Part shown: positions 2,546-51,222 of the stretch, piece after piece
Position numbering within the stretch: position 1 is the stretch's first letter
Layout of the letters: every line of letters begins with the position of its first letter
NCBI GenBank assembly: GCA_016187025.1
Contig: JACPKM010000001.1
Coordinates: 245,688 to 309,687 of the forward strand
DNA: 64,000 bases
From: Candidatus Daviesbacteria bacterium
Lineage (GTDB): Bacteria; Patescibacteriota; Microgenomatia; Daviesbacterales; UBA10151
Direction of reading: 5' to 3'
Notes under the pieces: generated by a model
The model's database searches: none
Told to the model about the DNA's origin: nothing
The model's input: the letters and a program-made list of their open reading frames with translations, nothing else
Made by a program: the position numbers and the translations under genes

Positions 2546-3271
2546 TTAAAAGATCTTAATATCAGCTTGTTGTTTTAATTCTTGGAACTTTTGGGAAAAG
2601 ATTTGAGATACTTTTTGTTGTTTGATTAACTTCTCAGCTTCCACTTTTTGAGTAGCAGATTCACTGGCTGTTAATAGGGCTGAGTTTTGTTCAATAAATT
2701 TATCAACTTCTTCAGCAGACACAGTTGCTTCATTGGCATATAATTTTTCGACTGTTAGCTGAAGTTTAATTTGGTCTTTTAAGCCTTCTTTAGTTAAATT
2801 TTGTTGGGTCAGTAAGCTTTCAAAAGTCTCTTGTCCTCCAACACTTGTAATCAATTCTGAAATTTTGTTGTCTACTTCTTGGGAGGATACAGTGACATTT
2901 TGTTTTCTCGCAGCATCCAAAATAAGTTTTTCATTAATAATCTGGTTTAAAGTTTGGCTTCTATACTGCGCGTTCATTTTATTCAAAAGCTCAAAATTGG
3001 TAATTGGGCTACTATTGACAGTTCCTGCCACAAACCACTCTTTTTTCCAGAGTCCCAGAATTATCAGCGCCAAAACTACCAAAACTAGATAACCTCTTTT
3101 ATCCAGCTTAACTTTTTTTATATTATTTAATCTTTCTAAAATTTGATTGAGGAGGTTTTGACTAGCGTCTTTTTGCGTTAGTTCAGGTTTTGATTGCTTT
3201 ACAGTTTTTGGTTTTTGACTTATTTGCGCAGTAGTTGCGTTTGTCTTTGATTTTTGAGTTTTTCTTGCCAT
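2546..3271 (-). CDS. membrane-anchored SurA-N-terminal-domain-like chaperone (no PPIase domain)
   Basis: Basic N-terminus, single TM (LVLVVLALIILGLW), then SurA_N-like helical region (NFELLNKMNAQYRSQTLNQIINEKLILDAARKQNVTVSSQEVD). Confidence 0.45.
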   Translation of the reverse strand: MARKTQKSKTNATTAQISQKPKTVKQSKPELTQKDASQNLLNQILERLNNIKKVKLDKRGYLVLVVLALIILGLWKKEWFVAGTVNSSPITNFELLNKMNAQYRSQTLNQIINEKLILDAARKQNVTVSSQEVDNKISELITSVGGQETFESLLTQQNLTKEGLKDQIKLQLTVEKLYANEATVSAEEVDKFIEQNSALLTASESATQKVEAEKLIKQQKVSQIFSQKFQELKQQADIKIF

Positions 3272-4145
3272 GTGGCCGATAATAACACAGCAGTTTTTAT
3301 TAATGCAAGATATCAGATATAATAAAATAGTGCATTTCTACTTTGCTCAGTGTTATAATCAAAAAGGTTTTGCCCAACCCTTTTTGATTATTGCAGTTTT
3401 AATACTTGTGGCTTTTGGAGTTTACCGATTAACAACTCCTCTTTCTACCTCTAACCCCCCAAGCACCCTAAGCTCCCCAACTGTCCCCGATGTGTCCGAG
3501 TTTAATAATTATTCAAATGAGTCTCTGGGGTTTTTATTTAAGCATGCAAAGAATCTAGCAGTTAAGCAAGACTCAGAGGAAGAATTTAATAAAAGAGAGA
3601 ATGGGGATTTCAGGAAAAATTTTAAAGGATATGTGATGTATGAGCCGGCTCAAGTCTTAGGAGCGGTAACTGTGTTAGAAAAGGATAACTCTTTTGATTT
3701 AGCGCCGTTTTCTGTTTGGGTTTTTGACAATTCTGAACAGTTAAATAGCTCTCAATGGTTTGAAAAGTACTGGTTTTATCCTTATCTTTGGGGAGTTTTT
3801 TCAGAGCCAGATAAAGGCCATATCAGGCCTGAAAAAGAGGCTACAGTATCCGGACAAACTGTTAAATATTCAGTAGTTTCATATCAGCCCGGTTCCCCGA
3901 AATATATCTTGATTTCACAAAACCAACGGATATATTTGCTAAGGGTGGTAGGTGGTGAGGGAGAGAAGATTTTACAAAGCTTTAAATTTGGGGGGAGTCA
4001 AGATAAGACTGCTTATACCTGTCCACAGAATGGTTGGGAAAATTGTATGCCCGTTTTGACGCCTGAAAGTCAAAAGCAGTGTAGTGAAGAAGCTTTGAGT
4101 TGGAAAAAAATAAACTGTTCTAATTTCAAAGGGGCGGCTTATTAG
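3270..4145 (+). CDS. hypothetical membrane-anchored secreted protein (true start probably internal, e.g. MQDIRY...)
   Basis: Long ORF with N-terminal TM (FLIIAVLILVAFGVY), Pro/Ser/Thr linker, W/Y-rich extracellular part and C-terminal cysteines; no recognisable family. Confidence 0.45.
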   Translation: MWPIITQQFLLMQDIRYNKIVHFYFAQCYNQKGFAQPFLIIAVLILVAFGVYRLTTPLSTSNPPSTLSSPTVPDVSEFNNYSNESLGFLFKHAKNLAVKQDSEEEFNKRENGDFRKNFKGYVMYEPAQVLGAVTVLEKDNSFDLAPFSVWVFDNSEQLNSSQWFEKYWFYPYLWGVFSEPDKGHIRPEKEATVSGQTVKYSVVSYQPGSPKYILISQNQRIYLLRVVGGEGEKILQSFKFGGSQDKTAYTCPQNGWENCMPVLTPESQKQCSEEALSWKKINCSNFKGAAY

Positions 4146-4268: not shown

Positions 4269-4676
4269 ATGATAGACGATAAACTCATTTCACAAATTCA
4301 GCAGGCTCTATCTAAAGAACCTAAGATCAAATTGGCCTATGTTTTAGGTTCTACTGTTAGCGGAAGAGTAAAAACCGACAGCGATTTTGATTTAGCAGTA
4401 GTGACAGATGATAAGGCTCAGGTAAGTTACGATCAGATCTATCAGCTAATCTCCGGTTTAAGTTTTCCTAAAGATTTAGATTTATCCATAGTTGATAAAA
4501 ACTCTTCCCCGCTTTTTTTATTTCAAATTACCAGTACAGGCGAGTGTGTTTACCAAAAATCTGATACTGAGGGAATTGCTTTTGAAGCGTATGCTATGAA
4601 AAATTATTATGATACTGCTCACTTAAGAAGTATCTACTCCTCTTATCTAAAAGAAAGGTTTCCGTATGCCCATTAA
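4269..4676 (+). CDS. mntA: minimal nucleotidyltransferase, MntA-type antitoxin
   Basis: GS-x9-13-DxD nucleotidyltransferase motif (LGSTVSGRVKTDSDFDLAVV); overlaps the downstream HEPN gene by 11 nt. Confidence 0.75.
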   Translation: MIDDKLISQIQQALSKEPKIKLAYVLGSTVSGRVKTDSDFDLAVVTDDKAQVSYDQIYQLISGLSFPKDLDLSIVDKNSSPLFLFQITSTGECVYQKSDTEGIAFEAYAMKNYYDTAHLRSIYSSYLKERFPYAH

Positions 4677-5088
4677 TAAAACTCTGGTTTTTAAAAAGCT
4701 GGATTTCTTAAATAGCTATCTTCATAAAATAGAGAGTATGGATTTTAGCGAGGAAGCTTTTGTGGAGGATGCTGATATTCATGATCTGATAGTTTTTCGG
4801 TTGCAGCAGGCGGTAGAAACATGTATTGATATAGCAGCACATATTATTGCTGGTCTGGATGCGCCACAAAAAGAGACAGCAAAAGATGCCTTTATATTCT
4901 TAGGTGAGAAGGAAATTATAGATGTTGATTTAGCAAAAAGAATGGGCCAGGCAGCAGATTTTAGAAATAGGGCAGTCCATGGATACAATAATTTTGATTA
5001 CAGGTTACTCTTTAAAGATTATAGAGAAGACCTAAAAGATCTCCGCCAATTTGGAGCAGAAATAATTAAATATCTGGAAGGCGTATAA
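4666..5088 (+). CDS. hepT: HEPN-domain (DUF86) HepT-type toxin
   Basis: R-x4-6-H HEPN motif (FRNRAVHGY); 140 aa; coupled to the upstream nucleotidyltransferase gene. Confidence 0.75.
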   Translation: MPINKTLVFKKLDFLNSYLHKIESMDFSEEAFVEDADIHDLIVFRLQQAVETCIDIAAHIIAGLDAPQKETAKDAFIFLGEKEIIDVDLAKRMGQAADFRNRAVHGYNNFDYRLLFKDYREDLKDLRQFGAEIIKYLEGV

Positions 5089-5099
5089 AGCTGGAATTT

Positions 5100-5726
5100 A
5101 TGCAAAAAGGACAAACAGCCGTTCTGGTTGTGTTGGGAATACTAATCTTGGGAATTGTCGCCGGCGGAGCGTATTATTTTGGAAAATCCCAAGTCGCAAA
5201 ACCACAACAGCAGAATGCTGTAATTACTTCTCAAACCTCACAGCTAACTCCTGCCTCAAGTCCTAGTCCGGTTGATGAAACAGCCAATTGGAAAGCATAT
5301 AAAGATTCAAAATATGCATATTCATTTAAGTACCCTAATACTTGGTATCTTGTATCTGTTGAAGGAGATCAAAAACTTTATAATGTGCCTCCGGAAACTG
5401 CTGGCCCAGCTTACGAAATTTCTTTTTTTGTTGCTCCCATTAGTAGGGGAATTAATCTATCAGACCGAATTGGGGCCGGAAAAGAAGTGGCGGATAAAGT
5501 GTTTGAGGAGAAAACGGGTGATTATAATTTAGGTAATGTATCGGGTGCTAAGATAAAGACCGAAGTACTAAGTGGTAGTCAAACAGACGCTGTTCCTACG
5601 ATAGGTGTAAAAATTGCTCTGAATACGTTGGAGGTTTTATATGTTGAAATGATATGTACTGAAAGCAACTGCACTACCATCGATGAATTATTTGATCAAA
5701 TTCTTTCAAGTCTTCGGTTAAAGTAG
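5100..5726 (+). CDS. hypothetical secreted protein with N-terminal signal anchor
   Basis: TM AVLVVLGILILGIVAGGAYYF, then S/P/Q-rich linker and a W/Y-rich globular domain; unassigned family. Confidence 0.5.
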   Translation: MQKGQTAVLVVLGILILGIVAGGAYYFGKSQVAKPQQQNAVITSQTSQLTPASSPSPVDETANWKAYKDSKYAYSFKYPNTWYLVSVEGDQKLYNVPPETAGPAYEISFFVAPISRGINLSDRIGAGKEVADKVFEEKTGDYNLGNVSGAKIKTEVLSGSQTDAVPTIGVKIALNTLEVLYVEMICTESNCTTIDELFDQILSSLRLK

Positions 5727-6413
5727 ATAGATATCCACAAATCTTGCACTCCAGCCGGCTGTGCGGGCATCATTAAATCCTAAGTCTATAATATTTCCTT
5801 TGATTGCTCCACCAGTGTCACCGGCAACAGCTTCTCCATACCCCGGGATATAGACTTTAGATCGCATTGGTATAACTTTCGGATCAACTGCAATTACTCC
5901 TTTTCCAGCCCTCATTCCAATTGCAGTCCACTCATCACAACCTGGGCATTTTGAATCATAGTGTGTTGCATAAACTCTCATTTTCTTCCAGTATTTAATC
6001 TCTCCATCTGCAGTGCTCAAAGTTTTCCAAACAATTTTTGTTCCTCTCGATATTTTTTTATCTTTTGCTGGGGTAGTATCTATTGATACAACCTCCCGGT
6101 TATATTCTTTGTTGTCATAGTAGGTAATCTTGATTATCTTTACTTTTTTCCCAGCTCCTCCTTCTTCTAAAACTTTTTCTTCTCCTGCTTCTGTTTCTGG
6201 GTCGTCTTCGTAAACGGTTTTTTTGGGAATAATCTCAACATTCTCCTCTAGTTTGTCTGTAAATCTAGATTGAGTTTCAAGTGGTTGATATGCAGGAAGC
6301 TTATGATCACCTTCCTCGATACTGGCCTGAACTGGAGGTGGGAAGATTGGCCAGATGAATCTGGCTGTTAAAAGCAAAACTGCTATCAGAAAAAATCCCC
6401 AGTATCGGTCCAT
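5718..6413 (-). CDS. G5-domain plus 3D (RlpA/MltA-like double-psi beta-barrel) domain cell-wall protein
   Basis: N-terminal TM, acidic linker, G5-like segment (KKVKIIKITYYDNKEYNREVVSIDTTPAKDKKISRGTK), C-terminal 3D domain (ATHYDSKCPGCDEWTAIGMRAGKGVIAVDPKVIPMRSKVYIPGYGEAVAGDTGGAIKGNIIDL). Confidence 0.6.
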   Translation of the reverse strand: MDRYWGFFLIAVLLLTARFIWPIFPPPVQASIEEGDHKLPAYQPLETQSRFTDKLEENVEIIPKKTVYEDDPETEAGEEKVLEEGGAGKKVKIIKITYYDNKEYNREVVSIDTTPAKDKKISRGTKIVWKTLSTADGEIKYWKKMRVYATHYDSKCPGCDEWTAIGMRAGKGVIAVDPKVIPMRSKVYIPGYGEAVAGDTGGAIKGNIIDLGFNDARTAGWSARFVDIYLL

Positions 6414-9195: not shown

Positions 9196-9249
9196 GATTC
9201 ATTTACCTTCTAGTCTTTCCGTAGAGAGCTTTACTATGTAAGTACGTAT

Positions 9250-9278
9250 TGACAAGATTATATTTGTGTAGTATGGTA
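9250..9278 (+). promoter_or_regulatory. sigma70-type promoter for brnTA (TTGACA-17-TATGGT)
   Basis: TTGACA at 9250-9255, 17-nt spacer, TATGGT at 9273-9278, about 16 nt before the brnT ATG; the TTG start used by the ORF track is the -35 hexamer itself. Confidence 0.4.
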
Positions 9279-9293
9279 TATACATATTTCTGG

Positions 9294-9590
9294 ATGAGAA
9301 CCGATAAAGATGTTTTTGAATTTGAGTGGAATAACGGAAACAGCGGGAAAAATAAAAAGCATAAAGTGGAAGACAAAGAAGCCGAGGAAGTATTTTTTGA
9401 TGAGAACAAAGTAACTTTTCCTGATAGTCTCCATTCCACAGACAATGAGGAACGTTTAAGAATAATTGGTAAAACTAAAAAAGGAAGGTTACTATTTATT
9501 GTCTTTACCAAAAGAGGTCAAAAAATTAGAATCATTTCAGCAAGAGATATAAACCGAAAGGAGGTGCCTCTTTATGAAAAAACCGCTTAA
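9294..9590 (+). CDS. brnT: BrnT (DUF497) ribonuclease toxin of type II TA system (start at internal ATG, MRTDKDVFEFEWN...)
   Basis: Characteristic FEFEWNNGNSGKNKKHKV N-terminus and RIISARDINRKEVPLYE C-terminal segment of the BrnT family; overlaps brnA by 17 nt. Confidence 0.7.
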   Translation: MRTDKDVFEFEWNNGNSGKNKKHKVEDKEAEEVFFDENKVTFPDSLHSTDNEERLRIIGKTKKGRLLFIVFTKRGQKIRIISARDINRKEVPLYEKTA

Positions 9591-10819: not shown

Positions 10820-11761
10820 TTGTATACTAATTTAATGGATGATAAACTGCCCCCGCCAATCAAAATTACCCCAAACTCCCCGGATATACCTAATCCCCCA
10901 AATGACGATGACCCCATATTTGAGGCTAAAATCAATAACCCCTTTAGTAAATTTTTTAGCTGGATCAAAGATTTCCTTAAAAAACAAAGTAATATAACTA
11001 TTAAAATACCCATTATTGGTATTATCATGGGATTATCAGGTCTGGGGATCGGATGGGGCACAGGATACAACTGGGGTTTTAATACTGCACTTGCTAAACT
11101 ATTTCCCAACTCCTCTCCTGTTTTTCATAGGGCAGTTTCTTTAGAAGGAGTAATTCAAAAATCTGCTTCAGCGCAATTTTATCTAAAATCAGAGGATAAC
11201 TTATGGATTTTGAAACCAAAATCCCCAATCACCCCGGCAATCATAGAAACCTCAGTTGAAAAACAAGTGAAAGTTTTAGGTAATTTAACCAAAGAAGCAA
11301 ACGCTGTTGAAGTCTCAGAAATTATCCCGCTTGAGTCTCCCCAACCTACCCTAACGCCCCTTACCTCCCTTGTAAATTCTTATTCCTCTACTTCTTCTAA
11401 CCCTTCTAATCCCCCTGACTCTGAGCTTAAATTACCGGATCTCTTCACAGGGCTGCAATGGGTATCCACCCAAAAAAAGGTTTTAGTTTTTACCTCGGGT
11501 AAAAGAAGGATGGATGTGGAAGGGTTTCACATTGAATCATCCCAGCTTACTTCTTTCCCTCAGGATTTTATTAACTACTATATTACTGAGCTTAAAAACA
11601 AAGGCTTTAAAGAAACTCTAAATTCTATTAATCCTGAAGGGATAACAGTAACTTATTCCAAAGATGACCTCTTTTTAACTTTTGGAGTCAAAAATATCTA
11701 TCAAGGCAAAGCAGATAAAAAACAACTTGCAGGTTATGTTGCCTATCTAGAACATAATTAA
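10820..11761 (+). CDS. hypothetical membrane protein with Pro-rich N-terminus and extracellular domain
   Basis: 313-aa ORF, TM IKIPIIGIIMGLSGLGIGWG, S/T/P-rich linker; no recognisable family. Confidence 0.4.
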   Translation: MYTNLMDDKLPPPIKITPNSPDIPNPPNDDDPIFEAKINNPFSKFFSWIKDFLKKQSNITIKIPIIGIIMGLSGLGIGWGTGYNWGFNTALAKLFPNSSPVFHRAVSLEGVIQKSASAQFYLKSEDNLWILKPKSPITPAIIETSVEKQVKVLGNLTKEANAVEVSEIIPLESPQPTLTPLTSLVNSYSSTSSNPSNPPDSELKLPDLFTGLQWVSTQKKVLVFTSGKRRMDVEGFHIESSQLTSFPQDFINYYITELKNKGFKETLNSINPEGITVTYSKDDLFLTFGVKNIYQGKADKKQLAGYVAYLEHN

Positions 11762-12147
11762 GTCTTTGGGGTAAAGAGCTTTATCCCCTTGATATTCTCA
11801 AAATCTTTCCGGTTTAATGTAGCCAGTTCTAATTTGTGGAAAAGAGTAGTGGCGGCAATAATTGCATCGGAAAGGTTTCTGCCATATTTTGCCCTAGTTT
11901 CCCCGGCTTTCTCTGAAATCTCTTCTTCTAATGGCAAAATTTTGATATCCGAAAAAAGTGACTTTAATGTCTGCAAAGCCTCTGTTTTCTCCCATATACT
12001 TTTTCCAGAAAAGCATTCTGTATGAGTAATAATGGAAGCATAAAGCGGAATTTGGCTTTGTTCTAACTTGATCTGTATTGTTTTACGTTTATCTTTTTGA
12101 CGCAGGAAATCTATAATAATGGAAGTATCAACTAATACGCCATTCAT
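11758..12147 (-). CDS. vapC: PIN-domain ribonuclease toxin VapC
   Basis: N-terminal LVDTSIIIDFL with conserved acidic residues; 129 aa; start overlaps the stop of the upstream RHH gene. Confidence 0.7.
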   Translation of the reverse strand: MNGVLVDTSIIIDFLRQKDKRKTIQIKLEQSQIPLYASIITHTECFSGKSIWEKTEALQTLKSLFSDIKILPLEEEISEKAGETRAKYGRNLSDAIIAATTLFHKLELATLNRKDFENIKGIKLFTPKT

Positions 12148-12404
12148 TACCAGTTATATTTTTTTAATCTTTTTTCCAGATCCTTTCGAATTTTTTTGTA
12201 TTCCTGATAATCCTTATCAGTAAACCAGTCGGTTTTCAAATTTAACAGCATTTTAATCCTATCCTTTTTAGACATTTTTTCCTTACTGCCGACCTTCTCC
12301 CTAATGATTGCAGAGAAACTTTTTCTTTTTTTGGCTGCTTCCTCTTTGAGTCTTAAATAATCTTCTTCAGGCAGTCTGATGTTAGTTACCACATAGTTAC
12401 TCAT
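12147..12404 (-). CDS. vapB: ribbon-helix-helix antitoxin VapB (start at MSNYVV...; the ORF-track N-terminal extension is rejected)
   Basis: NIRLPEEDYLRLKEEAAKKRKSFSAIIREKV is a typical RHH/CopG segment; immediately upstream of and coupled to vapC. Confidence 0.55.
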   Translation of the reverse strand: MSNYVVTNIRLPEEDYLRLKEEAAKKRKSFSAIIREKVGSKEKMSKKDRIKMLLNLKTDWFTDKDYQEYKKIRKDLEKRLKKYNW

Positions 12405-12572
12405 ACAATACCATTGTATCATGATATTGAAATTAGTCAATATTAAGTCTTGTCCAATACAAGATGAGCATGAAATAACAGGTTGTTCTAATACAAGAAG
12501 AGCATAAAAAACCGCAAACACAAAACGAAAGCTTTACAATTTATAGCAATCATAGTATCATCTACGGTTATT

Positions 12573-13409
12573 ATGGGCCTAAATACAGTTGAAAGTGATA
12601 CTTCAGCAGTCAGAAATTCTGGATATAGGAGTTTAGCGGGATTTCTCAACCCAATCGTAGAAAAAGGGCAGGCACGTTTCCCCGGGGTCAAAGCATGGCA
12701 CATTACAGCTACTGGGATAGCTTTGACAATAGCAGGAACCGAGCTTGAAGAATATCAAAATCGAAGAGGCAAACATACAACATCGCTAGACTTGCTATCC
12801 GGTGCATTAACAGTTCTGGGAGTAGTTTGTGATCTTTTAGATGGTAAATGGGCAAGACTGGCAAGAAGTGAGATGTGGGATCCTGTAAAAAGAGAGGATA
12901 ATGAAAAATGGGGACAGGCGATAGACCCGGCTGCAGATGGGGTTATAGAAGCGCACCGGGCGTTTGCTGGGGCAGTAACAGCCTGGCATTTAGGTGATAA
13001 AGAAGGCTTTAATGCTGCAATGAGAAATATGGAAAGTACCAATCGGCCCAGGACTGCAAAAGCTTTTGTAGGGGCTTTCGGTAAAGCTACACCTGAAAGC
13101 TACCCCGTTTTTGATCCGAGATTCCTCGGCACAAGTTTAGGCAGGAAAGTACCTAACTTTCTCAGTACATATGTTAGAAAGCTTAGAGGATGTCCTATAC
13201 AGTTTATGATGGATTCAAGGGTAGCTAATGCAAATGATGTGGTAACAGCTGAGCGTTTATGGATGGTAGTTAAGCCTGCGAAAAGATTGAATGGTAAGGA
13301 GGCTAAACATGCCCAGGCTAGACTAGTGGTACTTGGAGCAGAAACCTTGGCTATTGCAGGTGCTGCATACCTTGTACGAAAAACCCTTACCTTTCCAGAG
13401 AATAAGTAG
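12573..13409 (+). CDS. GC-rich hypothetical membrane protein with partial CDP-alcohol phosphatidyltransferase-like motif
   Basis: DLLDGKWAR...GQAIDPAADG resembles DG-x2-AR...G-x3-D-x3-D; hydrophobic segments; GC about 47% versus about 35% background. Confidence 0.35.
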   Translation: MGLNTVESDTSAVRNSGYRSLAGFLNPIVEKGQARFPGVKAWHITATGIALTIAGTELEEYQNRRGKHTTSLDLLSGALTVLGVVCDLLDGKWARLARSEMWDPVKREDNEKWGQAIDPAADGVIEAHRAFAGAVTAWHLGDKEGFNAAMRNMESTNRPRTAKAFVGAFGKATPESYPVFDPRFLGTSLGRKVPNFLSTYVRKLRGCPIQFMMDSRVANANDVVTAERLWMVVKPAKRLNGKEAKHAQARLVVLGAETLAIAGAAYLVRKTLTFPENK

Positions 13410-13657: not shown

Positions 13658-14620
13658 ATGAACAATAAGTTAAGTTTATTGACACAAAAGAAACAAAAGC
13701 TAGATGGTTTTAGACCATTACCTCTAGAATTGGTTAAAAATCTTGATGAATGGTTTAAGGTAGAACTTACCTACACCTCTAATGCCATTGAAGGTAATAC
13801 TCTAACCAGGGCAGAGACAGCCCTAGTAGTAGAAAAAGGTATTACCGTACAAGGTAAGAGTTTAACAGAACATTTAGAGGCGACTAACCATGTTGATGCT
13901 TTGGAATATGTAAAAACACTGGTAGGCAAAAAAAGGCAAGATATAACAGAACAAGATATTTTAGATATAAACAGGCTAATCTTAAATAAGATTGAGGCTG
14001 TTAATGCGGGTAGATATAGGACACAACATGCACGGCTGACTGAAACTGATGTAATTTTACCCAACCCAGTTAAAATTCCAGAGCTTATGGAGGAGTTTAT
14101 GGGATGGCTGGTGGGTGATAATTCAGACCATGTAGCAAAGATAGGGGCTGATGCTCACTTCAAGTTAGTTAGTATTCATCCATTCTCGGATGGGAACGGT
14201 AGGACTTCCCGACTTCTCATGAACTTACTGTTTATGCAAGAAGGCTACCCACCTGCTATAGTCCGTAAAGAAGATAGATTAGCATATATAAACTCCTTGG
14301 AGAAAGCTCAGAAAGGCGGTGGGTTAGATGATTTTTATAATCTAATTTATGAAGCAGTTGACCGCTCGCTGGATATTTATTTAGAGGCACTCCAACCAGA
14401 AAGAGAGAGTTTAGCAGAGCCTATCCCAGCTCAGAGGTTTTATACTACAGATGAGGTGGCAAGATTACTTCAAGTAGATCCAGAGAGTGTTAGAAGATAT
14501 GTCAGGAGAGGGATACTGCGGGCAGTTAAGTTGGGTGGTAAGTTTATTAGAATAGACAAAGCTGATTTAGACAGGTTTATTGAGCAATTAAAAACAACTA
14601 GGACTGGACTTACGCAATAA
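13658..14620 (+). CDS. fic: Fic/DOC family protein with N-terminal inhibitory helix motif and C-terminal excisionase-type HTH
   Basis: Fic motif HPFSDGNGRTSRLLMN; N-terminal SNAIEGN ([S/T]xxxE[G/N] alpha-inh, class II-like); C-terminal YTTDEVARLLQVDPESVRRYVRRGILRAVKLGGKFIRIDKADLDRF resembles excisionase/MerR-family HTH. Confidence 0.75.
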   Translation: MNNKLSLLTQKKQKLDGFRPLPLELVKNLDEWFKVELTYTSNAIEGNTLTRAETALVVEKGITVQGKSLTEHLEATNHVDALEYVKTLVGKKRQDITEQDILDINRLILNKIEAVNAGRYRTQHARLTETDVILPNPVKIPELMEEFMGWLVGDNSDHVAKIGADAHFKLVSIHPFSDGNGRTSRLLMNLLFMQEGYPPAIVRKEDRLAYINSLEKAQKGGGLDDFYNLIYEAVDRSLDIYLEALQPERESLAEPIPAQRFYTTDEVARLLQVDPESVRRYVRRGILRAVKLGGKFIRIDKADLDRFIEQLKTTRTGLTQ

Positions 14621-17246: not shown

Positions 17247-17859
17247 CACATCTAGAAAAAAGCTTTCAGAGATAAGGCAGAAATTTGAAGATATTACAAC
17301 TTTTGGTAAGAATACATCTTTTCAGGAGCTGGTAGGCAGTTTGATGACAGTTCCCCTGTTATCAGAACAAAGATTAATAATCTTAGAAAACCCACCTGAA
17401 GATTTTGAGTTTGGAGATATTGGAACCCAAACTTTTTTGGCTATCTGGTTTGACCATGAAGTATCAGAAAAGAAAAAAATTATAATTTGGGCCAAACAAA
17501 ATGCCCATGTTTTTTATTTTCCTCCAGAAAAAGAAATAACAATCTTTCCATTCTTGGACTTACTGGCAAATAAAGACAAGAAAGCTTTTGTACAAATTGA
17601 GAAGTTAAAAGAGAGTAAAGATTTTGATAGTTTCTATTTTTTAACAATGTCTTTTTATCTACTAAGAAATTTAACAACTGATTCTAAAGCCATGCCTGTC
17701 TTTGTAAAACAAAAACTGGAAAAACAACGAAAAAACTTTTCTAAGAAAGAAATTAAAAAAATATACAAACAAATTTTAGAGATAGAATACAAGCTTAAAA
17801 ACGGGTTGATGGAGCAGGACCAAGCAGAATTTTTACTGATTTACTCTTTTGTTAATTAG
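17212..17859 (+). CDS. possible DNA polymerase III delta subunit-like protein (short)
   Basis: Weak resemblance to the HolA N-terminal region (LLLHGSAINTSRKKLSEI...QRLIILENP); assignment tentative. Confidence 0.3.
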   Translation: MKPLLLHGSAINTSRKKLSEIRQKFEDITTFGKNTSFQELVGSLMTVPLLSEQRLIILENPPEDFEFGDIGTQTFLAIWFDHEVSEKKKIIIWAKQNAHVFYFPPEKEITIFPFLDLLANKDKKAFVQIEKLKESKDFDSFYFLTMSFYLLRNLTTDSKAMPVFVKQKLEKQRKNFSKKEIKKIYKQILEIEYKLKNGLMEQDQAEFLLIYSFVN

Positions 17860-18796
17860 AGCTTTTTATTTCATCAATTCTTTTGCTGATCAAGTCCAAA
17901 TCTTTTTGATTCACAACACCATCACTGTTTAAATCAGCCCTTTTATCTTTGGGGCTTTTACCAAAGTTTTTTAATACAATTGCATGGTCTGATGCATTAA
18001 TTTTTCCGTCACTATTTAAATCATAAATTACTTCTTTGCTTGATAAAGATGGACTAGGGGACGGGCTTGACTGCTTGGCAGTTAAATCCAGGTTTTGGCC
18101 GATTTTTATTACTCCTATTGTTTCTCCATCTTGTCTAATTTTAAAAATTGCCGTGCCTTGTGAGTCTGCAGAAATGACAATCAGTTTGGCCAAAGTATCT
18201 TCTTCTAATTTAAAAGCATCTCCTAAATCATCGGTCTTCATGTTACTAATTGGAATGATAAAGTTACCAAAATCTTTAATCAGCGATGATTGGGTGGTTG
18301 CTCCGGCAATAGATAGATACACAATGCCATCTTTAAGTGGTTGATTACCTGATACCACAGATCCGATGATAGGTTTAAAACCATTGTTGTCAAGTTTAGG
18401 TGGCGCAGTTTTAAACGTTAAAATCTCACTTGCTTGTCTACCAGCGACAATTTTAAATTTATATTCACTCTGAGGGCTCAAATCCTTTAGGGTGACATAG
18501 TGAATTTGGCGGGGTTGCGGGGTATTAGTGTCTCTATCATCCAAAGCAGTCTTTTCATTCGGAGAGGATAAACCAAAAGTAACAAATCCGGATGTAATTA
18601 CAACTGTTTTCCAGGAAATAATAACGGAATTATCTTCAATGTTTGAGAAAGTAATGTTTTGCGGTGCAGTATCTGGACCAGCAAAACTTGTTATTGTTTG
18701 TTGATTTAAAACCAAAAATACTCCAGCAGAAGTCCCTAAAATTATAATGGCAAGTCCTAGTAAGGTTGGTATTCTAAACTTAGTAAAAAAACTCAT
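17852..18796 (-). CDS. secreted fibronectin-type-III plus dockerin-like (double EF-hand Ca-binding) repeat protein
   Basis: Signal anchor, FN3-like segment (PQNITFSNIEDNSVIISWKT...YKFKIVAG), SPSPSPS linker, two DxNxDGxxNxxD repeats (DLNSDGKINASD, DLNSDGVVNQKD). Confidence 0.55.
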   Translation of the reverse strand: MSFFTKFRIPTLLGLAIIILGTSAGVFLVLNQQTITSFAGPDTAPQNITFSNIEDNSVIISWKTVVITSGFVTFGLSSPNEKTALDDRDTNTPQPRQIHYVTLKDLSPQSEYKFKIVAGRQASEILTFKTAPPKLDNNGFKPIIGSVVSGNQPLKDGIVYLSIAGATTQSSLIKDFGNFIIPISNMKTDDLGDAFKLEEDTLAKLIVISADSQGTAIFKIRQDGETIGVIKIGQNLDLTAKQSSPSPSPSLSSKEVIYDLNSDGKINASDHAIVLKNFGKSPKDKRADLNSDGVVNQKDLDLISKRIDEIKSSN

Positions 18797-18799
18797 ACA

Positions 18800-18973
18800 T
18801 TAGTTACCTTCTAGCCCGCTCAAGTCAAAGTTAGGATTTATAGGCTCGATTATTTCTTTTGTTTTGGCAGGAATCTCAACTTGACTTCTGGCATGCAAGA
18901 CATCAAAGAGAACCCATGAGCAAATTGTAACAAATGTGGCAATAGCAATGATCAAAATATCTTTTCTTGTCAT
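18800..18973 (-). CDS. 57-aa small single-TM protein, translationally coupled between pilO and the FN3/dockerin gene (below ORF-track size cutoff)
   Basis: ATG overlaps the pilO stop (ATGA); its stop lies 3 nt before the next ATG; MTRKDILIIAIATFVTICSWVLFDVLHARSQVEIPAKTKEIIEPINPNFDLSGLEGN. Confidence 0.35.
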   Translation of the reverse strand: MTRKDILIIAIATFVTICSWVLFDVLHARSQVEIPAKTKEIIEPINPNFDLSGLEGN

Positions 18974-19578
18974 CTTAGATAATATGCCTTTCCGGTAATC
19001 GACATTAAAAGGTTGGAAGATTCCTCAGATCCCTTATTGATAATTAAATCGTCAATAGATATAAGCCTAGGGCTTTTTTGAATTTCTGCAAGAATTTTTA
19101 ATAAAGGCTCATAAGGTCCTTCGATATTCACTGTAAACGAAACCTCACTTAGTGTGTTATCAAACTTAGTTGAGGTTGTATGGGGTATGGTTAAGGGTTG
19201 TATTTGAATTGCCGAAATTGTGGCATCATATGTTTTTGAGGATAGCTCAAAAGTTTGTATTAGAGTGGTGTAAGTAATATTACCGGGAATTGCAGATTGA
19301 ATTTTAGTTTTAAGCTGAGTGTTGAGATTATCATAATTTTGTTTACCTAGTGATAAATTTTCAGCTTTTTGGGTAACTTGTTTTAGGATTTCTCTGGAAT
19401 CTTCCAGTTTTATTTGCAAAGTTAATATTGTTTCTATAGTTGGTTTGATGGCAAATAATAAAAAGATACTCATTGCAGCAAATGTAATTACAGTTGTTCC
19501 ATAAGTTCTAATGACCGGAATTTTTGTAACCGGTTTTATATATGTAAAATACCGGGAATTTTTATTTGGTGAGGTCAT
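18970..19578 (-). CDS. pilO: PilO-like type IV pilus/competence assembly protein
   Basis: Short cytoplasmic N-terminus, one TM, coiled-coil, C-terminal ferredoxin-like region; 4-nt overlap with the upstream PilN-like gene. Confidence 0.45.
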   Translation of the reverse strand: MTSPNKNSRYFTYIKPVTKIPVIRTYGTTVITFAAMSIFLLFAIKPTIETILTLQIKLEDSREILKQVTQKAENLSLGKQNYDNLNTQLKTKIQSAIPGNITYTTLIQTFELSSKTYDATISAIQIQPLTIPHTTSTKFDNTLSEVSFTVNIEGPYEPLLKILAEIQKSPRLISIDDLIINKGSEESSNLLMSITGKAYYLR

Positions 19579-20162
19579 AGTTTCTTTCCTCCATCCTTTC
19601 CTGCATTGCTTGTTGCTGTAACATTGAAGGAGATTGCTCCTTCATCCAGCCCAACTCCTGATAAAATTACATCTTTAAAATTTTCATCTTTTTTGAAAGC
19701 ATTAATCATGCTATTTAAATCAAGGTTGTTTCTAGCACGGCCTTTTAATTTAATAGTTATCTTGCCAACATCTTTTGTTATTGTAATGTTTGATATTTTA
19801 ATATCATTGGGAATTTTATCAGAAATCTCTTTTAATAGGTTAATATAATCGGCACTATTTTGACTGTTTACTTTGATAGTGGATAACTTAAGCTGCGTTT
19901 GGCGAATCAGTAGCTCATATGGCTTTAGGCTTTCGATGTAGGGAATCTGGTTTTCAATAGCTTCTTTAGTGGAGGCCAAGTCTGCGTCCAGTTTAAACCT
20001 AGACAAAAAAACAGTTAAAACCAGTAGCTCTACAAAAACTAAAATATATCTTCCTGTGGAAAGTAGCCATTTAGTAAAGGTAATCCAAATCTTTTCTGGA
20101 TTACTCTGTGGGTGAAGTAAGTCAAGCTTTAGCTTGAAAGGTTCATTTCTCTTGTGGGACAT
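19575..20162 (-). CDS. pilN: PilN-like fimbrial assembly protein
   Basis: Cytoplasmic N-terminal peptide, single TM (YILVFVELLVLTVFL), periplasmic domain of PilN length. Confidence 0.45.
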   Translation of the reverse strand: MSHKRNEPFKLKLDLLHPQSNPEKIWITFTKWLLSTGRYILVFVELLVLTVFLSRFKLDADLASTKEAIENQIPYIESLKPYELLIRQTQLKLSTIKVNSQNSADYINLLKEISDKIPNDIKISNITITKDVGKITIKLKGRARNNLDLNSMINAFKKDENFKDVILSGVGLDEGAISFNVTATSNAGKDGGKKL

Positions 20163-20213: not shown

Positions 20214-20450
20214 TTAACTAGCAGCTAGTTTAGCTAGCCTGCTTTTAATTCTATCTGATTTGTTAGGGTGGATTAATTTTACTTTTGCAGCTTTGTCCAA
20301 AGCCGAAAAGGCAAGCTTTAAACTCTGGGGAGTTTTCTTATCTCTTGCATCTTTTACCAGCCTCTTGACGGTTGTTTCCCTTTTGTAATTTCTGATCGTG
20401 CGTATTTTGTCCTGACGCATCTTTTTAATTGCACTTTTAATGATAGGCAT
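20214..20450 (-). CDS. rpsT: 30S ribosomal protein S20 (start at MPIIKSAIKK)
   Basis: IKSAIKKMRQDKIRTIRN...LDKAAKVKLIHPNKSDRIKSRLAKL matches S20 consensus. Confidence 0.75.
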   Translation of the reverse strand: MPIIKSAIKKMRQDKIRTIRNYKRETTVKRLVKDARDKKTPQSLKLAFSALDKAAKVKLIHPNKSDRIKSRLAKLAAS

Positions 20451-20511
20451 AGATGCAAATATAACATGTAGCCTGGTTTTGTTCAAGCTGCAATGCTAAA
20501 ATGACACGTAC

Positions 20512-24147: not shown

Positions 24148-25125
24148 ATGAAAGTTATTAAGCCAAAAAAGCTAAATAAAGGAGATACCATTGGCATTGT
24201 TGCATCTTCTTTACCAGTTCTCCCTGTTTTCAAAAAAAATTACGAGCAAGGTAAAAAAGTAATTAAAGATTTAGGATTTAAAATTAAAGAAGGGGAAACA
24301 ATCGGTAAGCAAAGATGGTGGATGGCAGGGACTCCAAAAGAAGTAGCAGAGGATATTAATAATATGTTTGCTGATAAAGGCGTTAAAGCCATTATGGCCC
24401 AAACTGGTGGTTATTCTGCTATTTCTGTCTTGGAGCATCTAGACTATGAACTTATAACTCAAAACATAAAACCTTTTGTTGGTATGTCTGATATGACCGC
24501 ATACCATTTAGCAATTTTTGCTAAAACTGGAATGGTGGGTTTTCATATGGATGATGTAACCTTTGGTCTTGGTATGAATGCATCATCTGGTAAAGATAAA
24601 AAACTTTTAGAATTTGATGAAGAGATGTTTATAAAGTTTTTAACCAGAACAGATCCACCCGGAATTATTAAACCCTTAACAGAATGGGAGGAATGGAAAA
24701 AAGGAAAAGCTAAAGGTCATTTAATTGGAGGAATATTGCAACTTCTCACAAGACACATAGGTACACCATATTTTCCGAAATTGGAGGAATTTGATGGAGC
24801 TATTCTATTTTGGGAGGAAGTGGGTAAAGAAAGATATGAAATTGCCAGATGTCTTTATCAGCTTAAATATGCTGGTATATTAGATAGAATTTCTGGGATG
24901 TTAATAGGTAAAATAAAATATGTAAAACCGATTAGAGATCAGGAGGTGAGGGAGCCTGAAGTTAAAGATTTAGTTTTGGAAATACTAAAAGATTACAAAT
25001 TTCCTATAATGCAAAATTTGGACTTTGGTCATTTTACTGTCAATATCCCTATGCCAATTGGAACCAAAGTGGAATTTGATACAAAAAATCTGTTGCTTAA
25101 TTTTTTGGAGTCTCCGGTTTCTTAA
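24148..25125 (+). CDS. ldcA: LD-carboxypeptidase (S66 family, LdcA-like)
   Basis: N-terminal GDTIGIVASS, nucleophile segment GMSDMTAYH, C-terminal DFGH motif. Confidence 0.7.
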   Translation: MKVIKPKKLNKGDTIGIVASSLPVLPVFKKNYEQGKKVIKDLGFKIKEGETIGKQRWWMAGTPKEVAEDINNMFADKGVKAIMAQTGGYSAISVLEHLDYELITQNIKPFVGMSDMTAYHLAIFAKTGMVGFHMDDVTFGLGMNASSGKDKKLLEFDEEMFIKFLTRTDPPGIIKPLTEWEEWKKGKAKGHLIGGILQLLTRHIGTPYFPKLEEFDGAILFWEEVGKERYEIARCLYQLKYAGILDRISGMLIGKIKYVKPIRDQEVREPEVKDLVLEILKDYKFPIMQNLDFGHFTVNIPMPIGTKVEFDTKNLLLNFLESPVS

Positions 25126-25847
25126 TAGTTCATACGATTTACTCTACAATTAGGACATCTTAAGGTGTCTGATTGAAAAAGCCGCATAATCTTATCTGAG
25201 GATTTAAAGCTAACTTCAGTGTTGTTTTCTAAAGTGTAGATATCAGGATTGTTATCAAAGCTTAAGGTGGCAGGTCCTCTTAATAGCTTAATTTTTACTA
25301 AATCTTTCTGCTTAAAAAGAATTGGTTTTAGTTTTTCAGTGGTGTTATTAAGAGCAACTCCGTAAAAACCATTTGAAAAAGTTTGGTGAGTAATACTTTT
25401 ATAATAGCCGCTTGCTCCAAACTCAGTTGCAACCACAGCACCATCTCCAATAATTAGTTTATCTGTAACTTGTTCTCCATTTTTTGATATTAGGAATCTA
25501 ATTGCATGAATAGGTAGTTGGTTTCTAATGACAAAATCATTTACAGCAGTTAGTGTTGTCTGTTCAAAGCTTGCCTCTAGCTTTGCAAATTCTGTTAATT
25601 TTAAATGTCCATCTTTTAATTTTCTAAATAGTTCTACGTCTTTGTGAGGGGTGCATTTGACACAAATTGAATTATCCCTGATTGCAAGCTTGGGAATTTG
25701 GGGGTACCTGCTTTCAGCAGATAAAAGAGTGCCATCGCCACCATATGTAATTATGACTTCTGGATTACTATCAGTTAGGTTAAAACCTAAAGGTTCCAAA
25801 AGGGGAGTTAACTCATCAGATCTTTTGCCAAAAAGAGAAGCCTTCAT
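25122..25847 (-). CDS. nadK: NAD kinase
   Basis: GGDGTLL motif and DGAVVATEFGASGYYKS (DGxxxxTPTGSTAY-like) segment. Confidence 0.6.
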   Translation of the reverse strand: MKASLFGKRSDELTPLLEPLGFNLTDSNPEVIITYGGDGTLLSAESRYPQIPKLAIRDNSICVKCTPHKDVELFRKLKDGHLKLTEFAKLEASFEQTTLTAVNDFVIRNQLPIHAIRFLISKNGEQVTDKLIIGDGAVVATEFGASGYYKSITHQTFSNGFYGVALNNTTEKLKPILFKQKDLVKIKLLRGPATLSFDNNPDIYTLENNTEVSFKSSDKIMRLFQSDTLRCPNCRVNRMNY

Positions 25848-48954: not shown

Positions 48955-51222
48955 GTGAATTTTGATATGAGTTTACTAAGTAACCTCTCTGCCCGGTTAG
49001 GCTTAGGGAAAAAAGAGGAACATCCAGAATACTATTTTGCTATAAACATTGGACCCCAAAGTTTAACAGCAGCTTTATGGGCGATAGAACATAACCAACT
49101 TAAGGTAATTAACACCTCATCTTTCGAGTACTCATCAATGGAGGAAATAATTTCTGTTGTTGATAAACTTCTAGGAGAGTTACTAAGCAATGATTACCCA
49201 GAACCTCAAAAGGTTTTATTTGGAGTTCCAGACTCTTGGTTGCAAGATGAAGATTTACAGGAATCATATATGAAGTTTTTGAGAAGACTGGTAAAAGAGC
49301 TAGAGTTAACTCCAATGGCTTATGTAGCATCATCACATGCCCTTTCCCATTTCCTAGAAAAACAAACTGGTACTCCGACAACAGCAATCTTAGTAGGCTT
49401 GGATGAAAAATACGTTACAGTTACTGTAGTTAGAGCTGGAAAGCTTGATACTAGCAAAGTGTCACAAAGAGGCAACAATTTAGGAGAAGATATTGAAAAG
49501 CTGTTACTGAGCTTTACTGCAATAGAAGTTTTACCTTCAAAAATAATCCTTTATGGAAATGATCATCTAGGTTTAGATAAGCATAAAAATCAACTACTTG
49601 AGTATTCTTGGATGTCGAAATTGTCTTTCTTGCACGTTCCTAAAATCGAGTCTCTAGGTGAAAATGTTGAGATAGATTCAGTGGCGTTTGCTGGAGCAGT
49701 TGAACTCAATCCGGCAGTAGAGTTTAAAAAATTACATGCAAAAGAAGATAAAGATTTTAAACCAATGAGCGAAGAAGAAATAATTGAGCAAGTTGAAGAA
49801 GTAGAAGAAGAAAAAAAAGGTGAAGTTAGCAAGGAGTTAAAAGATATAGAAGAGGATAGCAAGTATGAAGCGGCAGAAAAAGAAGTAAATATCAATAAAG
49901 TTTCAGCAGAAGAATTAGGGTTTGTCACAGGCGATATAAGAGAGACTAATTTAGTTGTACCTGAGGCTGAAGATTTTGAAAAAGATATGATTACTACCCC
50001 TCCTGCCTATGATATTTCTACCAAAAAAGCTGCAGGTTTGGGAAAAAAGCTCAAATTTATACAGTTTTTAAGCATTAAAGACTATATAAAAGGAAGAGGA
50101 ATCTATCTTTCTATAGTTATTTCGGTTTTTCTTTTATTGCTGGGTGGGTACCTATTTTTATTAAAGTCTGATGTCAAAGTTTTTGTCGAACCACAAATAC
50201 TAGAAAAAGATGCTCAAATAGTTGCAGATCCGGCTATTAAAGAAGTAAATGAAGCAGACAATAAAATTCCAGGACAATCAGTCGATATTAGGATAAATGG
50301 TACTGGTAAAGGAGCTGCTACTGGAACTAAACAGGTTGGAGATCCTGCTAAGGGAACTGTTGTTGTTTACAACAAAACTTTTGAGCCTAAAAGTTTTAGC
50401 AAGGGAACTACCTTAACAGCAGCAAATGGGTTTAAATACACACTTGATGTCAATGTAAATATTGCTTCTCAATCTGCAAGCGATAGTGGAATTTCCTTTG
50501 GTAAAGCGAATGCCGAAGTAACAGCAGCAAATATTGGGGCAGATGGTAATCTGCCTTCTGGAAGCGATTTAAACTTTACTAATTTTTCTTCTTCACAGGT
50601 TGGGGTTAAAGCAGAAGGTAATTTTTCAGGGGGAACAAGTAAAGAGGTTACAGTTGTTTCGGATGCTGACCAAAAGAAATTACTGGCCCAGGTTGCATCA
50701 GACTTAAAAGGGCAAGCCAAAGCAAAGTTACAAGAAAAATATCCCGATAAGAAGATTTTAGAGGAAGCATTGCAAGAAGAGATAGTTAAAAAAACATTTA
50801 GTAAAAATATCAATGATCAAGCAAGTGAGCTGTCTTTGGATTTAACAGTCAACTTTAAAGGAACAGCTTTTGAAGATAAGGATTTAAAGCAGCTGGTGTC
50901 AAAGCTTGTTTCAGTTAATGTTCCAGAAGGCTTTGAGCTAAACTTAGCAGAAACCGAAACCTTAGCTGATGTATCAAAATTAGAAAAAGATGGAAGACTG
51001 GTATTTTTGGCAAGGTTTAAGGCAAAGCTTATTCCCAAGGTAGATATTTCAGAAATTAAAAAACTAATAAGAGGTAAGACTCCTTTGCAGGTGGAAGAGA
51101 TTCTAAAAAGAAATGAACATATCTTAGGAACAGAGATAAAGCTTATCCCCTCCTTGCCGTCAGTACTTCAGAGACTGCCAATATTTGATAAAAACATTAG
51201 GGTAGAGGTAGGCCTTAAATGA
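48955..51222 (+). CDS. large bitopic membrane protein: about 375-aa cytoplasmic N-terminal region (possibly actin-like FtsA/PilM-like fold), one TM, about 355-aa extracellular C-terminal region
   Basis: TM IYLSIVISVFLLLLGGYLFLL near residue 380; N-terminus YYFAINIGPQSLTAALWAIEHNQLKVINTS resembles the first strand-loop of actin-like ATPases (weak); acidic linker. Confidence 0.5.
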   Translation: MNFDMSLLSNLSARLGLGKKEEHPEYYFAINIGPQSLTAALWAIEHNQLKVINTSSFEYSSMEEIISVVDKLLGELLSNDYPEPQKVLFGVPDSWLQDEDLQESYMKFLRRLVKELELTPMAYVASSHALSHFLEKQTGTPTTAILVGLDEKYVTVTVVRAGKLDTSKVSQRGNNLGEDIEKLLLSFTAIEVLPSKIILYGNDHLGLDKHKNQLLEYSWMSKLSFLHVPKIESLGENVEIDSVAFAGAVELNPAVEFKKLHAKEDKDFKPMSEEEIIEQVEEVEEEKKGEVSKELKDIEEDSKYEAAEKEVNINKVSAEELGFVTGDIRETNLVVPEAEDFEKDMITTPPAYDISTKKAAGLGKKLKFIQFLSIKDYIKGRGIYLSIVISVFLLLLGGYLFLLKSDVKVFVEPQILEKDAQIVADPAIKEVNEADNKIPGQSVDIRINGTGKGAATGTKQVGDPAKGTVVVYNKTFEPKSFSKGTTLTAANGFKYTLDVNVNIASQSASDSGISFGKANAEVTAANIGADGNLPSGSDLNFTNFSSSQVGVKAEGNFSGGTSKEVTVVSDADQKKLLAQVASDLKGQAKAKLQEKYPDKKILEEALQEEIVKKTFSKNINDQASELSLDLTVNFKGTAFEDKDLKQLVSKLVSVNVPEGFELNLAETETLADVSKLEKDGRLVFLARFKAKLIPKVDISEIKKLIRGKTPLQVEEILKRNEHILGTEIKLIPSLPSVLQRLPIFDKNIRVEVGLK

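Follow-up and report, generated by a model that had tools for sequence, protein, structure and literature searches.

The stretch of DNA analysed here, hereafter the window, comprises 64,000 nucleotides of the genome of a Candidatus Daviesbacteria bacterium, a member of the Patescibacteria/Microgenomates (contig JACPKM010000001.1, positions 245,688 to 309,687) and carries a compact cassette of four minus-strand open reading frames (ORFs) between positions 20162 and 17852, encoding proteins of 195, 202, 57, and 314 amino acids (aa). They are, in this order, a PilN protein, a PilO protein, a small membrane protein, and a protein in which a fibronectin type III (FN3) domain is combined with a dockerin. 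The ORF listing bears out the original prediction, made from the nucleotide sequence, that the four genes are tightly coupled: stop and start codons overlap as ATGA at the pilN/pilO and pilO/small-gene junctions, and a gap of 3 nt separates the small gene from the fourth one. The window is AT-rich (GC content of about 0.34-0.42). A single hydrophobic helix near the N terminus, flanked on its N-terminal side by positive charge, is present in all four proteins, which are therefore predicted to have the N terminus inside and the C terminus outside. The NCBI product names are "PilN domain-containing" (MBI2600634.1), "type 4a pilus biogenesis protein PilO", "hypothetical" (MBI2600632.1), and "fibronectin type III domain-containing" (MBI2600631.1, 100% identical to the product of the fourth gene). 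The domains and these individual annotations are thus already known. What is new is the combination of the four genes, its separation from the pilus genes, its spread across the Microgenomates, and the exchange of the dockerin for a sorting signal; a literature search did not find the cassette described as a combination.

The first two genes encode the proteins that relate the cassette to type IV pili. The product of pilN (19575..20162, minus strand) is a bitopic protein with a cytoplasmic N terminus, a transmembrane (TM) helix at about residues 36-56, and a C-terminal PilN domain, which is recognised at residues 109-183 by the Pfam family PF05137 (36.9 bits for a threshold of 22.8). A profile made from 20 orthologues retrieves the PilN chain of Myxococcus xanthus in structure 3jc8 (1.1e-4). 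The product of pilO (18970..19578, minus strand) is also bitopic, with a TM helix at about residues 28-48 followed by a coiled coil and a PilO domain (PF04350, residues 57-199, 31.7 bits for a threshold of 22). The corresponding 20-orthologue profile aligns over nearly its full length (positions 14-193) with the M. xanthus PilO of 3jc8 (2.9e-9) and also matches the Pseudomonas aeruginosa PilO 2rjz (4e-4). The best solved relatives of both profiles are the PilN and PilO of type IVa pili (T4aP). Matches of PilO to GspM-type models are weaker and remain below the GspM thresholds (T2SSM_b, 21.5 bits; NCBIfam GspM, 23.5 bits). The PilN and PilO profiles align weakly with each other (E of 8e-4, hhalign probability of about 25%), which fits the shared fold of the two families and is not strong on its own. 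Judging from these profiles, the two proteins are true members of their families, and the proposal that they are PilN-like and PilO-like holds: both exceed the Pfam thresholds, and both recover their Myxococcus T4aP counterparts.

The cytoplasmic end of PilN carries the motif LKLDLLHP (residues 11-18; 20109..20132, minus strand), the counterpart of the INLLP motif. Its core reads LDLLHP in the window, LNLLKP in most Daviesbacteria, SINLLP in locus L034, and ISLLP in locus L031; among Daviesbacteria it is conserved as L(N/D)LL(K/H/R)PQSNPEK, with one residue inserted before the proline. In characterised systems, the INLLP-type peptide of PilN is the binding site of PilM, as established by the PilM:PilN structures (PDB entries 2ych and 5eou). 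Because PilN retains such a motif, a PilM-type partner is predicted to be encoded elsewhere in the genome.

The small gene (18800..18973, minus strand; its start overlapping the pilO stop as ATGA) encodes a bitopic protein of 57 aa with a TM helix at residues 5-23 and the conserved motifs W..FD..H and I.P(I/L).P..D. It is kept in 25 Daviesbacteria-type loci at 44-68% identity (median 58%), and sister clades have homologues of 64-109 aa at the same position. This conservation indicates a real and constrained gene, as had been claimed from the window alone, and NCBI calls it too. Pfam gives the protein no family match above threshold, the sole match being a sub-threshold one to ComGE (16 bits). 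The idea that it could be ComGE or a minor pilin was rejected, since this match covers the TM helix only and the class III signal motif is absent.

The fourth gene (17852..18796, minus strand) encodes a protein with matches above threshold to fn3, Pur_ac_phosph_N, and Dockerin_1. From the N terminus onward, it is made up of a helix, the FN3 domain, another beta-sandwich, a disordered linker (PSPSPS), and a dockerin of type I, and its AlphaFold2 (AF2) model has a mean predicted local distance difference test (pLDDT) score of 86.8. The hydrophobic helix (residues 9-35 in the AF2 model; 18692..18772, minus strand), which may be a membrane anchor or a long signal peptide, is the best-conserved segment (mean majority-residue fraction of 0.74): P10, T11, L13, G14, G21, and A39 are invariant among 46 sequences, and its KIPT(L/I)LG motif is retained in the sister clades also. 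The S-F-A39 that follows the helix is a possible signal-peptidase site. Pfam, AF2, and Foldseek concur on a seven-strand beta-sandwich of the FN3 or purple-acid-phosphatase-N type at residues 44-130 (18407..18667, minus strand): fn3 (PF00041) scores 33.2 bits for a threshold of 25 and Pur_ac_phosph_N (PF16656) 37.3 bits for one of 30, the modelled strands at 46-129 have a pLDDT above 90, and the structural matches of the protein are tandem FN3 proteins, purple acid phosphatase N-domains, and a scaffoldin/dockerin complex. The second sandwich (residues 143-237; 18086..18370, minus strand) is modelled with a pLDDT of about 90 and resembles CarboxypepD_reg, matches to which are weak or faint and occur in the orthologues.

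The dockerin (residues 255-313; 17858..18034, minus strand) matches Dockerin_1 (PF00404) with 35.0 bits for a threshold of 22.9, from position 2 to position 56 of a model of 57. It has two calcium-binding loops, DLNSDGKINASD at residues 259-270 and DLNSDGVVNQKD at residues 288-299, and in the AF2 model each is followed by a helix (268-276 and 297-313). When the C-terminal 67 residues were searched against PDB sequences, the top matches were the cellulosomal dockerins 2y3n_B (3.5e-7), 1daq (9e-6), and 2mte, with calmodulins ranking lower. The anticipated association of FN3 with a two-loop dockerin is therefore well founded: the family is matched above threshold over the full model, and dockerins outrank calmodulins. 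D259, N267, D270, and D288 are invariant, and both loops are intact in 45 of the 46 orthologues. Within Daviesbacteria, only the N-terminal helix is better conserved than the dockerin, whose conservation value is 0.73-0.81; the mean majority-residue fraction is 0.73 in the dockerin, 0.67 in FN3, 0.64 in the second sandwich, and 0.34 in the linker. We also considered whether the fourth protein could be a PilP and rejected this, as a lipobox is absent and neither Pfam nor NCBIfam gives a match to PilP. The N-terminal regions of the third and fourth proteins are devoid of cysteine, and any likeness to PilP is one of position and function only.

The cassette is conserved as a unit well beyond the genome in which it was noticed. 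A scan of species-representative genomes with PilN gave 29 loci, of which 27 are of the Daviesbacteria type, and a metagenome scan with a three-sequence PilN alignment detected at least 506 relatives, from which 80 metagenomic loci were examined. The order rpsT-pilN-pilO-small gene-FN3/dockerin gene is kept in the 27 Daviesbacteria-type species-level loci. Of 83 further Microgenomates loci, 55 keep it too and the other 28 are truncated contigs; such a recurrence places the arrangement far beyond chance. Altogether, the cassette is found in about 110 loci of Daviesbacteria, Shapirobacteria (L031), Gottesmanbacteria (L035), and related metagenomic lineages, including further Microgenomates genomes (L034, L036). 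One hit of the genome scan, L032 (Saccharibacteria), was discarded as a false positive, being a VTT-domain protein without pilus genes. Of 25 loci, overlaps of 4 nt couple pilN to pilO in 19, pilO to the small gene in 13, and the small gene to the FN3 gene in 21. Rates of evolution are similar for the four proteins, whose median identities to the window are 49% (PilN), 49% (PilO), 58% (small protein), and 49% (fourth protein); the values for the flanking holA-like gene and MurJ are 48% and 74%. The cassette and its flanks are also present in a set of species-representative metagenome-assembled genomes evidently mis-titled 'uncultured Gammaproteobacteria bacterium' (binchicken TPA; L004, L007, L008, L010, L012, L015-L018, L020, L025, L028, L029).

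The fourth protein has over 300 full-length homologues at 90% clustering, and its core (residues 1-240) is matched by 1059 representatives of 50%-identity clusters (E<=1e-10), all of which align from their own N-terminus; one named relative is from Blackburnbacteria. Beyond the core, the protein changes from clade to clade. The dockerin is confined to Daviesbacteria-type proteins, including the deep branches L028 (39 bits) and L030 (24 bits). The fourth proteins of the other clades, of about 420-480 aa, have the two sandwiches followed by Big_13, a Pro/Thr-rich linker, and a conserved tail, in which PSTESGVPxSG precedes some 20 hydrophobic residues and a short terminus that is often basic (for example, the C-termini of P0241-P0294). 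This tail resembles a sorting signal for sortase, of a variant kind, or else a second membrane anchor. Dockerin loops are present in 83 of the 150 best representatives and a C-terminal TM helix in 40, with xPxxG in 22 of the latter. The pattern that these sequences suggest is that of a constant core of helix, FN3, and beta-sandwich with an exchangeable C-terminal fastening device. As the dockerin is swapped outside Daviesbacteria for Big_13, a sortase-like signal, and a TM helix, we favour an anchoring module over an adhesive tip. A neighbouring Shapirobacteria protein ends in LPEAG plus a TM helix, and a tail of this kind, with either PSTESGVPxSG or LPEAG, is carried by the surface proteins at 4340-5731 and 7110-8186 of L031.

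The place next to pilN where pilM might be expected is occupied by rpsT (20214..20450, minus strand), which encodes ribosomal protein S20 and is recognised as Ribosomal_S20p in orthologous loci. The absence of an adjoining pilM had been pointed out from the sequence, and Pfam indeed finds no PilM in the window. The gene rpsT is immediately 5' of pilN in 23 of the 27 Daviesbacteria-type loci, near it in the rest, and likewise placed in nearly all sister-clade loci. The two genes are 51 nt apart in the window, and a promoter and terminator scan found no minus-strand terminator-like site in this gap; rpsT and the cassette are probably cotranscribed, and the four genes probably form one operon. 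Whereas the mechanical ORF list has rpsT begin with the TTG at 20486, its true start is probably at 20450, where an ATG opens MPIIKSAIKK. A promoter-like site lies just upstream of this ATG, at 20486-20458, and may be shared by rpsT and the cassette. Over the window, such sites are no more frequent than in shuffled sequence, and the scan revealed nothing decisive on operon boundaries. Beyond rpsT, murJ and lepA are divergent to the cassette, and downstream of it a holA-like gene and a gene for an LCP-family ligase are convergent; both flanks are kept in most Daviesbacteria-type loci.

The genes for the rest of a pilus machine are not found in this region. Pfam and a motif scan revealed no PilM, PilB, PilC, PilT, or prepilin in the 64 kb of the window. 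The only actin-like protein in the window is a bitopic protein of 755 aa (48955..51222, plus strand), unlinked to the cassette and 29 kb away from it, which is a candidate partner. Its cytoplasmic domain (residues 25-255) is FtsA/PilM-like and is followed by an acidic linker that is long and disordered, a TM helix (382-402), and an extracellular domain similar to baseplate J/gp47. The proposal that its N-terminal half is actin-like proved right: the fold is of the actin-like ASKHA type and nearest to the FtsA/PilM subfamily, with a degenerate phosphate-1 motif (AINIG), and it resembles FtsA at least as much as PilM. Residues 1-267 have no Pfam match at E<=10, PilM (PF11104) included; the Pfam match of the protein is a weak one to Baseplate_J in the C-terminal half only, and a PDB sequence search gave no match. 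The family is conserved throughout Daviesbacteria (443 hits), and in every case its gene lies between alaS and ruvX-mltG with a sortase gene overlapping its end (51219-51869, plus strand, in the window).

Cohesins, the binding partners of dockerins, occur near the cassette in other lineages. About 30 long loci of a Gottesmanbacteria-like clade (L042-L103) encode, beside a GH39 gene and 3.5-5 kb upstream of pilN-pilO, a protein that combines Cohesin (41-45 bits for a threshold of 24.1) with Big_13 and a tail of IPxxGT plus a TM helix. Such proteins lie at 4105-5169 in L035, 4203-5237 in L036, and 4486-5472 in L095. Their sequences show that cohesin modules on wall-anchored proteins exist in Microgenomates, and, with sister lineages encoding cohesins with sorting signals near the cassette, a cohesin-dockerin pairing is available in the group. 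The FN3 proteins of the cohesin-bearing lineages have no dockerin, and almost no dockerin motif is found within 10 kb there. A second Daviesbacteria dockerin protein is encoded in L007 (12315-14540, minus strand), convergently and right after the cassette; it combines an S8 subtilisin-type peptidase, LamG, and Dockerin_1 (31.7 bits).

The reading to which we lean, with slightly less than even confidence, is that PilN and PilO form a platform which the FN3 protein, in the place of PilP and PilQ, ties to the wall, by dockerin-cohesin binding in Daviesbacteria and by a sorting signal or a second anchor in the sister lineages. The products of the cassette would form the membrane-embedded module of a type IV pilus-type machine, i.e. 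of a type IV filament system, adapted to a walled cell without outer membrane. In this module, PilN and PilO would pair in the membrane, as they do in characterised pilus machines, and the INLLP-type peptide of PilN would recruit an FtsA/PilM-like partner from another locus, which could be a canonical PilM or else the 755-aa protein. The bundle of PilN and PilO helices would be joined by the 57-aa protein and by the FN3 protein with its N-terminal helix. The FN3 protein, taking the gene position and the role that PilP and PilQ have in diderms, would extend outward from the platform, and its C-terminal module would fasten the platform to the wall or surface layer. This fastening would be a calcium-dependent binding of the dockerin to a cohesin-bearing wall protein in Daviesbacteria, whereas in the sister lineages it would be provided by Big_13 combined with either a sorting signal of the sortase type or another membrane anchor. 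A more elaborate version, which we regard as unlikely, is that the Microgenomates build a hitherto undescribed, monoderm-type trans-envelope alignment complex in which PilN/PilO, a tiny bitopic protein, and an FN3 strut replace PilP/PilQ. The strut would be attached to the wall covalently, through a sortase-type signal, or, in Daviesbacteria, through a cohesin-dockerin bond, and the 755-aa protein could be the cytoplasmic partner of the complex.

Several observations weigh against a wall-fastened pilus platform. A search of 1.29 Mb in 116 loci, covering the 10 kb around the cassette, revealed neither a PilB/PilT-type Walker A motif in any ORF of 250 aa or more nor a credible prepilin signal peptide of class III, and the Pfam tables of the window and of the annotated loci contain no PilM, T2SSE, or T2SSF (PilC). 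With no pilus ATPase or prepilin nearby in these loci, the cassette is an orphan relative to the pilus core genes, and, as it never lies beside other pilus genes, we infer the link to pili instead of observing it. No cohesin was found in the window, either by Pfam on essentially all ORFs of at least 100 aa or by tblastn with Microgenomates cohesins, and none was found in the Daviesbacteria flanks. The cohesin neighbouring the cassette in sister lineages is not the partner of the FN3 protein, which lacks a dockerin there; we rejected it as the dockerin partner, since Daviesbacteria do not have that gene at this place. The second loop of the dockerin is degenerate in a few orthologues (L008, L009, P0089). 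Finally, cleavage at the conserved S-x-A39 could remove the helix of the fourth protein, in which case the proposed membrane contact with PilN and PilO would be lost.

The separation of the cassette from the pilus genes also suits a different process. A PilN/PilO scaffold may have been co-opted for wall synthesis, division, or surface-layer attachment, with the FN3 protein as an arm and an FtsA-like cytoplasmic partner; we judge this somewhat unlikely, and it would account for the fact that pilus ATPase or pilin genes never adjoin the cassette in the 116 loci. It would also suit the genetic context, as the cassette is always found among envelope genes (MurJ and the LCP ligase, with FemAB, a G5-3D hydrolase, and an S66 LD-carboxypeptidase nearby), and its apparent expression with a ribosomal protein gene, which suggests that it is constitutive. 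The sole actin-like protein of the window being at least as FtsA-like as PilM-like points the same way. There is a precedent in Campylobacterota, where homologues of PilM, PilN, and PilO have been recruited to a flagellar cage, as PilN/PilO-type proteins encoded away from pilus genes (PMC10823254); that is another host group and another machine, and no flagellar genes accompany the cassette. However, the top profile matches are specifically to the PilN and PilO of T4aP, and the INLLP motif is a signature of PilM binding. The proximity of MurJ may lack functional meaning, because gene order is conserved over long stretches in these tiny genomes, and these stretches also include LepA, TIM, UvrD, and HrcA-GrpE-DnaK. 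Nor is a dispersed pilus machine unusual in these organisms: PilB, PilT, PilC, PilM, PilN, PilO, and PilD are reported to be widespread, and PilQ to be absent, in the Candidate Phyla Radiation (CPR) (PMC6744442), whose type IV pilus genes are commonly scattered. In Southlakia, a cultivated Saccharibacterium, these genes are essential and spread over three loci (PMC10633639).

The original prediction read the dockerin as the mark of a pilus- or envelope-docked adhesin or of an episymbiont attachment factor. Its structural basis stands; the function is not established, given that the dockerin is not constant, no cohesin was found in the window, and pilus genes are never adjacent. On what is essentially this reading, the fourth protein would be an independent surface adhesin or glycan binder, for example attaching cells to a host or to particles, that merely shares a transcript with pilN and pilO and whose dockerin places it on a cohesin scaffold next to other dockerin proteins. 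FN3, CarboxypepD_reg-like, and Big_13 domains are typical of surface adhesins, and the S8 peptidase/LamG protein adjoining the cassette in one Daviesbacteria genome suggests a docking system shared by secreted proteins. The conserved S-x-A site fits the cleavage of a signal peptide, and essential envelope proteins of Southlakia that contain dockerin and FN3 have been proposed to target host glycans (PMC10633639). We consider such an adhesin improbable all the same: adhesins usually evolve fast and vary in domain number, whereas this protein has a fixed core, a conserved helix, and a rate of evolution similar to that of PilN and PilO. Furthermore, its start codon overlaps the stop codon of the small gene in 21 of 25 loci, and the linkage of the four genes persists among lineages whose fourth proteins are only about 27% identical. 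A resemblance that is superficial altogether, with generic coiled-coil bitopic proteins and generic EF-hand sites that do no docking, could be suspected from the modest scores (31-37 bits), from the weak matches of the repeats to EF-hand models and calmodulins, and from the lack of a cohesin partner in the window and in the Daviesbacteria flanks. This is very improbable and largely excluded by the data: the Pfam hits all exceed curated thresholds, the dockerin match spans the 57-position model with true dockerins outranking calmodulins, independent profiles recover the PilN and PilO of a solved T4aP machine, and 45 of 46 orthologues keep the spacing, the helices, and the residues of the loops.

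Comparison with known systems delimits what a wall-fastened PilN/PilO platform would share with them. The PilM-N-O-P(-Q) systems of T4aP (P. aeruginosa, M. xanthus, Thermus thermophilus) have the same adjacent and translationally coupled pilN and pilO, the same bitopic topology with the N terminus inside, and the INLLP-type peptide; at the position of pilP and pilQ, two further downstream genes encode membrane-tethered extracytoplasmic proteins, with a beta-sandwich. The cassette differs in having rpsT instead of pilM upstream, in lacking a PilP (neither lipobox nor PilP/HR match) and a secretin, in having the 57-aa and FN3/dockerin proteins downstream, and in not being clustered with pilus genes, in a host without outer membrane. 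The type IV pilus loci of monoderms such as Clostridium perfringens and Streptococcus sanguinis are similar in that the cell is walled and lacks an outer membrane and that PilN and PilO occur without secretin. In these loci, pilM adjoins pilN-pilO inside a pil cluster with pilB, pilC, pilD, and pilins, and we know of no FN3/dockerin partner described for them. The GspL-GspM-GspC proteins of type II secretion offer another parallel, since the PilO of the cassette weakly matches GspM-type models, GspC is a bitopic protein linking the inner-membrane platform to the outer layer (the role that we propose for the FN3 protein), and GspL has an actin-like domain fused to a TM helix, a topology like that of the 755-aa protein. 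Yet, there are no matches to GspL, GspC, GspE, or GspF, the GspM scores are sub-threshold, and the extracellular part of the 755-aa protein is baseplate-J-like rather than ferredoxin-like. The dockerins of cellulosomes, such as those of the enzymes of Clostridium thermocellum, have the same two-repeat calcium loops at the C terminus after a Pro/Ser linker, and wall-anchored cohesins, such as the sortase-anchored ScaE of Ruminococcus flavefaciens, resemble the sister-lineage cohesin proteins with their sorting-signal-like C-terminal tail. The difference is that there is no glycoside hydrolase or scaffoldin context here and that the dockerin belongs to a protein whose gene shares a transcript with genes of a pilus machine.

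For attachment, motility, and DNA uptake, CPR bacteria rely on type IV pili, whose genes are essential in the only CPR species studied genetically. Such a machine has to be held in a walled, sometimes S-layered, envelope without outer membrane or secretin. Three features make the cassette a concrete candidate for its outer part: conservation throughout the Microgenomates (over 1000 clusters at 50% identity for the FN3 core), tight coupling with pilN and pilO, and a C-terminal anchor that is interchangeable. A non-cellulosomal dockerin, with cohesins nearby in sister lineages, is thereby put into a structural role that can be tested. If the more elaborate version, with a trans-envelope alignment complex, is true, this would be the first cohesin-dockerin pairing acting as the structural fastener of a pilus-type machine; if PilN and PilO were instead co-opted, it would be another case of such a scaffold being taken over by a different envelope machine. 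The single domains are ordinary, and it is their combination that is of interest.

A few other features of the window deserve mention. Five ORFs encoding proteins of 241-327 aa (3270-4145, 10820-11761, 12573-13409, 34740-35723, 25122-25847) have no Pfam match at E<=0.01, and those at 3270 and 10820 look bitopic with extracytoplasmic domains. PADLOC defence models gave nothing meaningful on the window, and Rfam and tRNA scans of it were empty. For such a very small genome, the window holds several genes of toxin-antitoxin type: nucleotidyltransferase/HepT (4269-5088), BrnT (9249-9590), RHH/PIN (11758-12521), and Fic-HTH (13658-14620). Lastly, the ORF at 46084-46722 (plus strand) combines a RodZ-type HTH_25 N-terminus with a Glucodextran_B-like C-terminal domain, and is found at the same position in L117.

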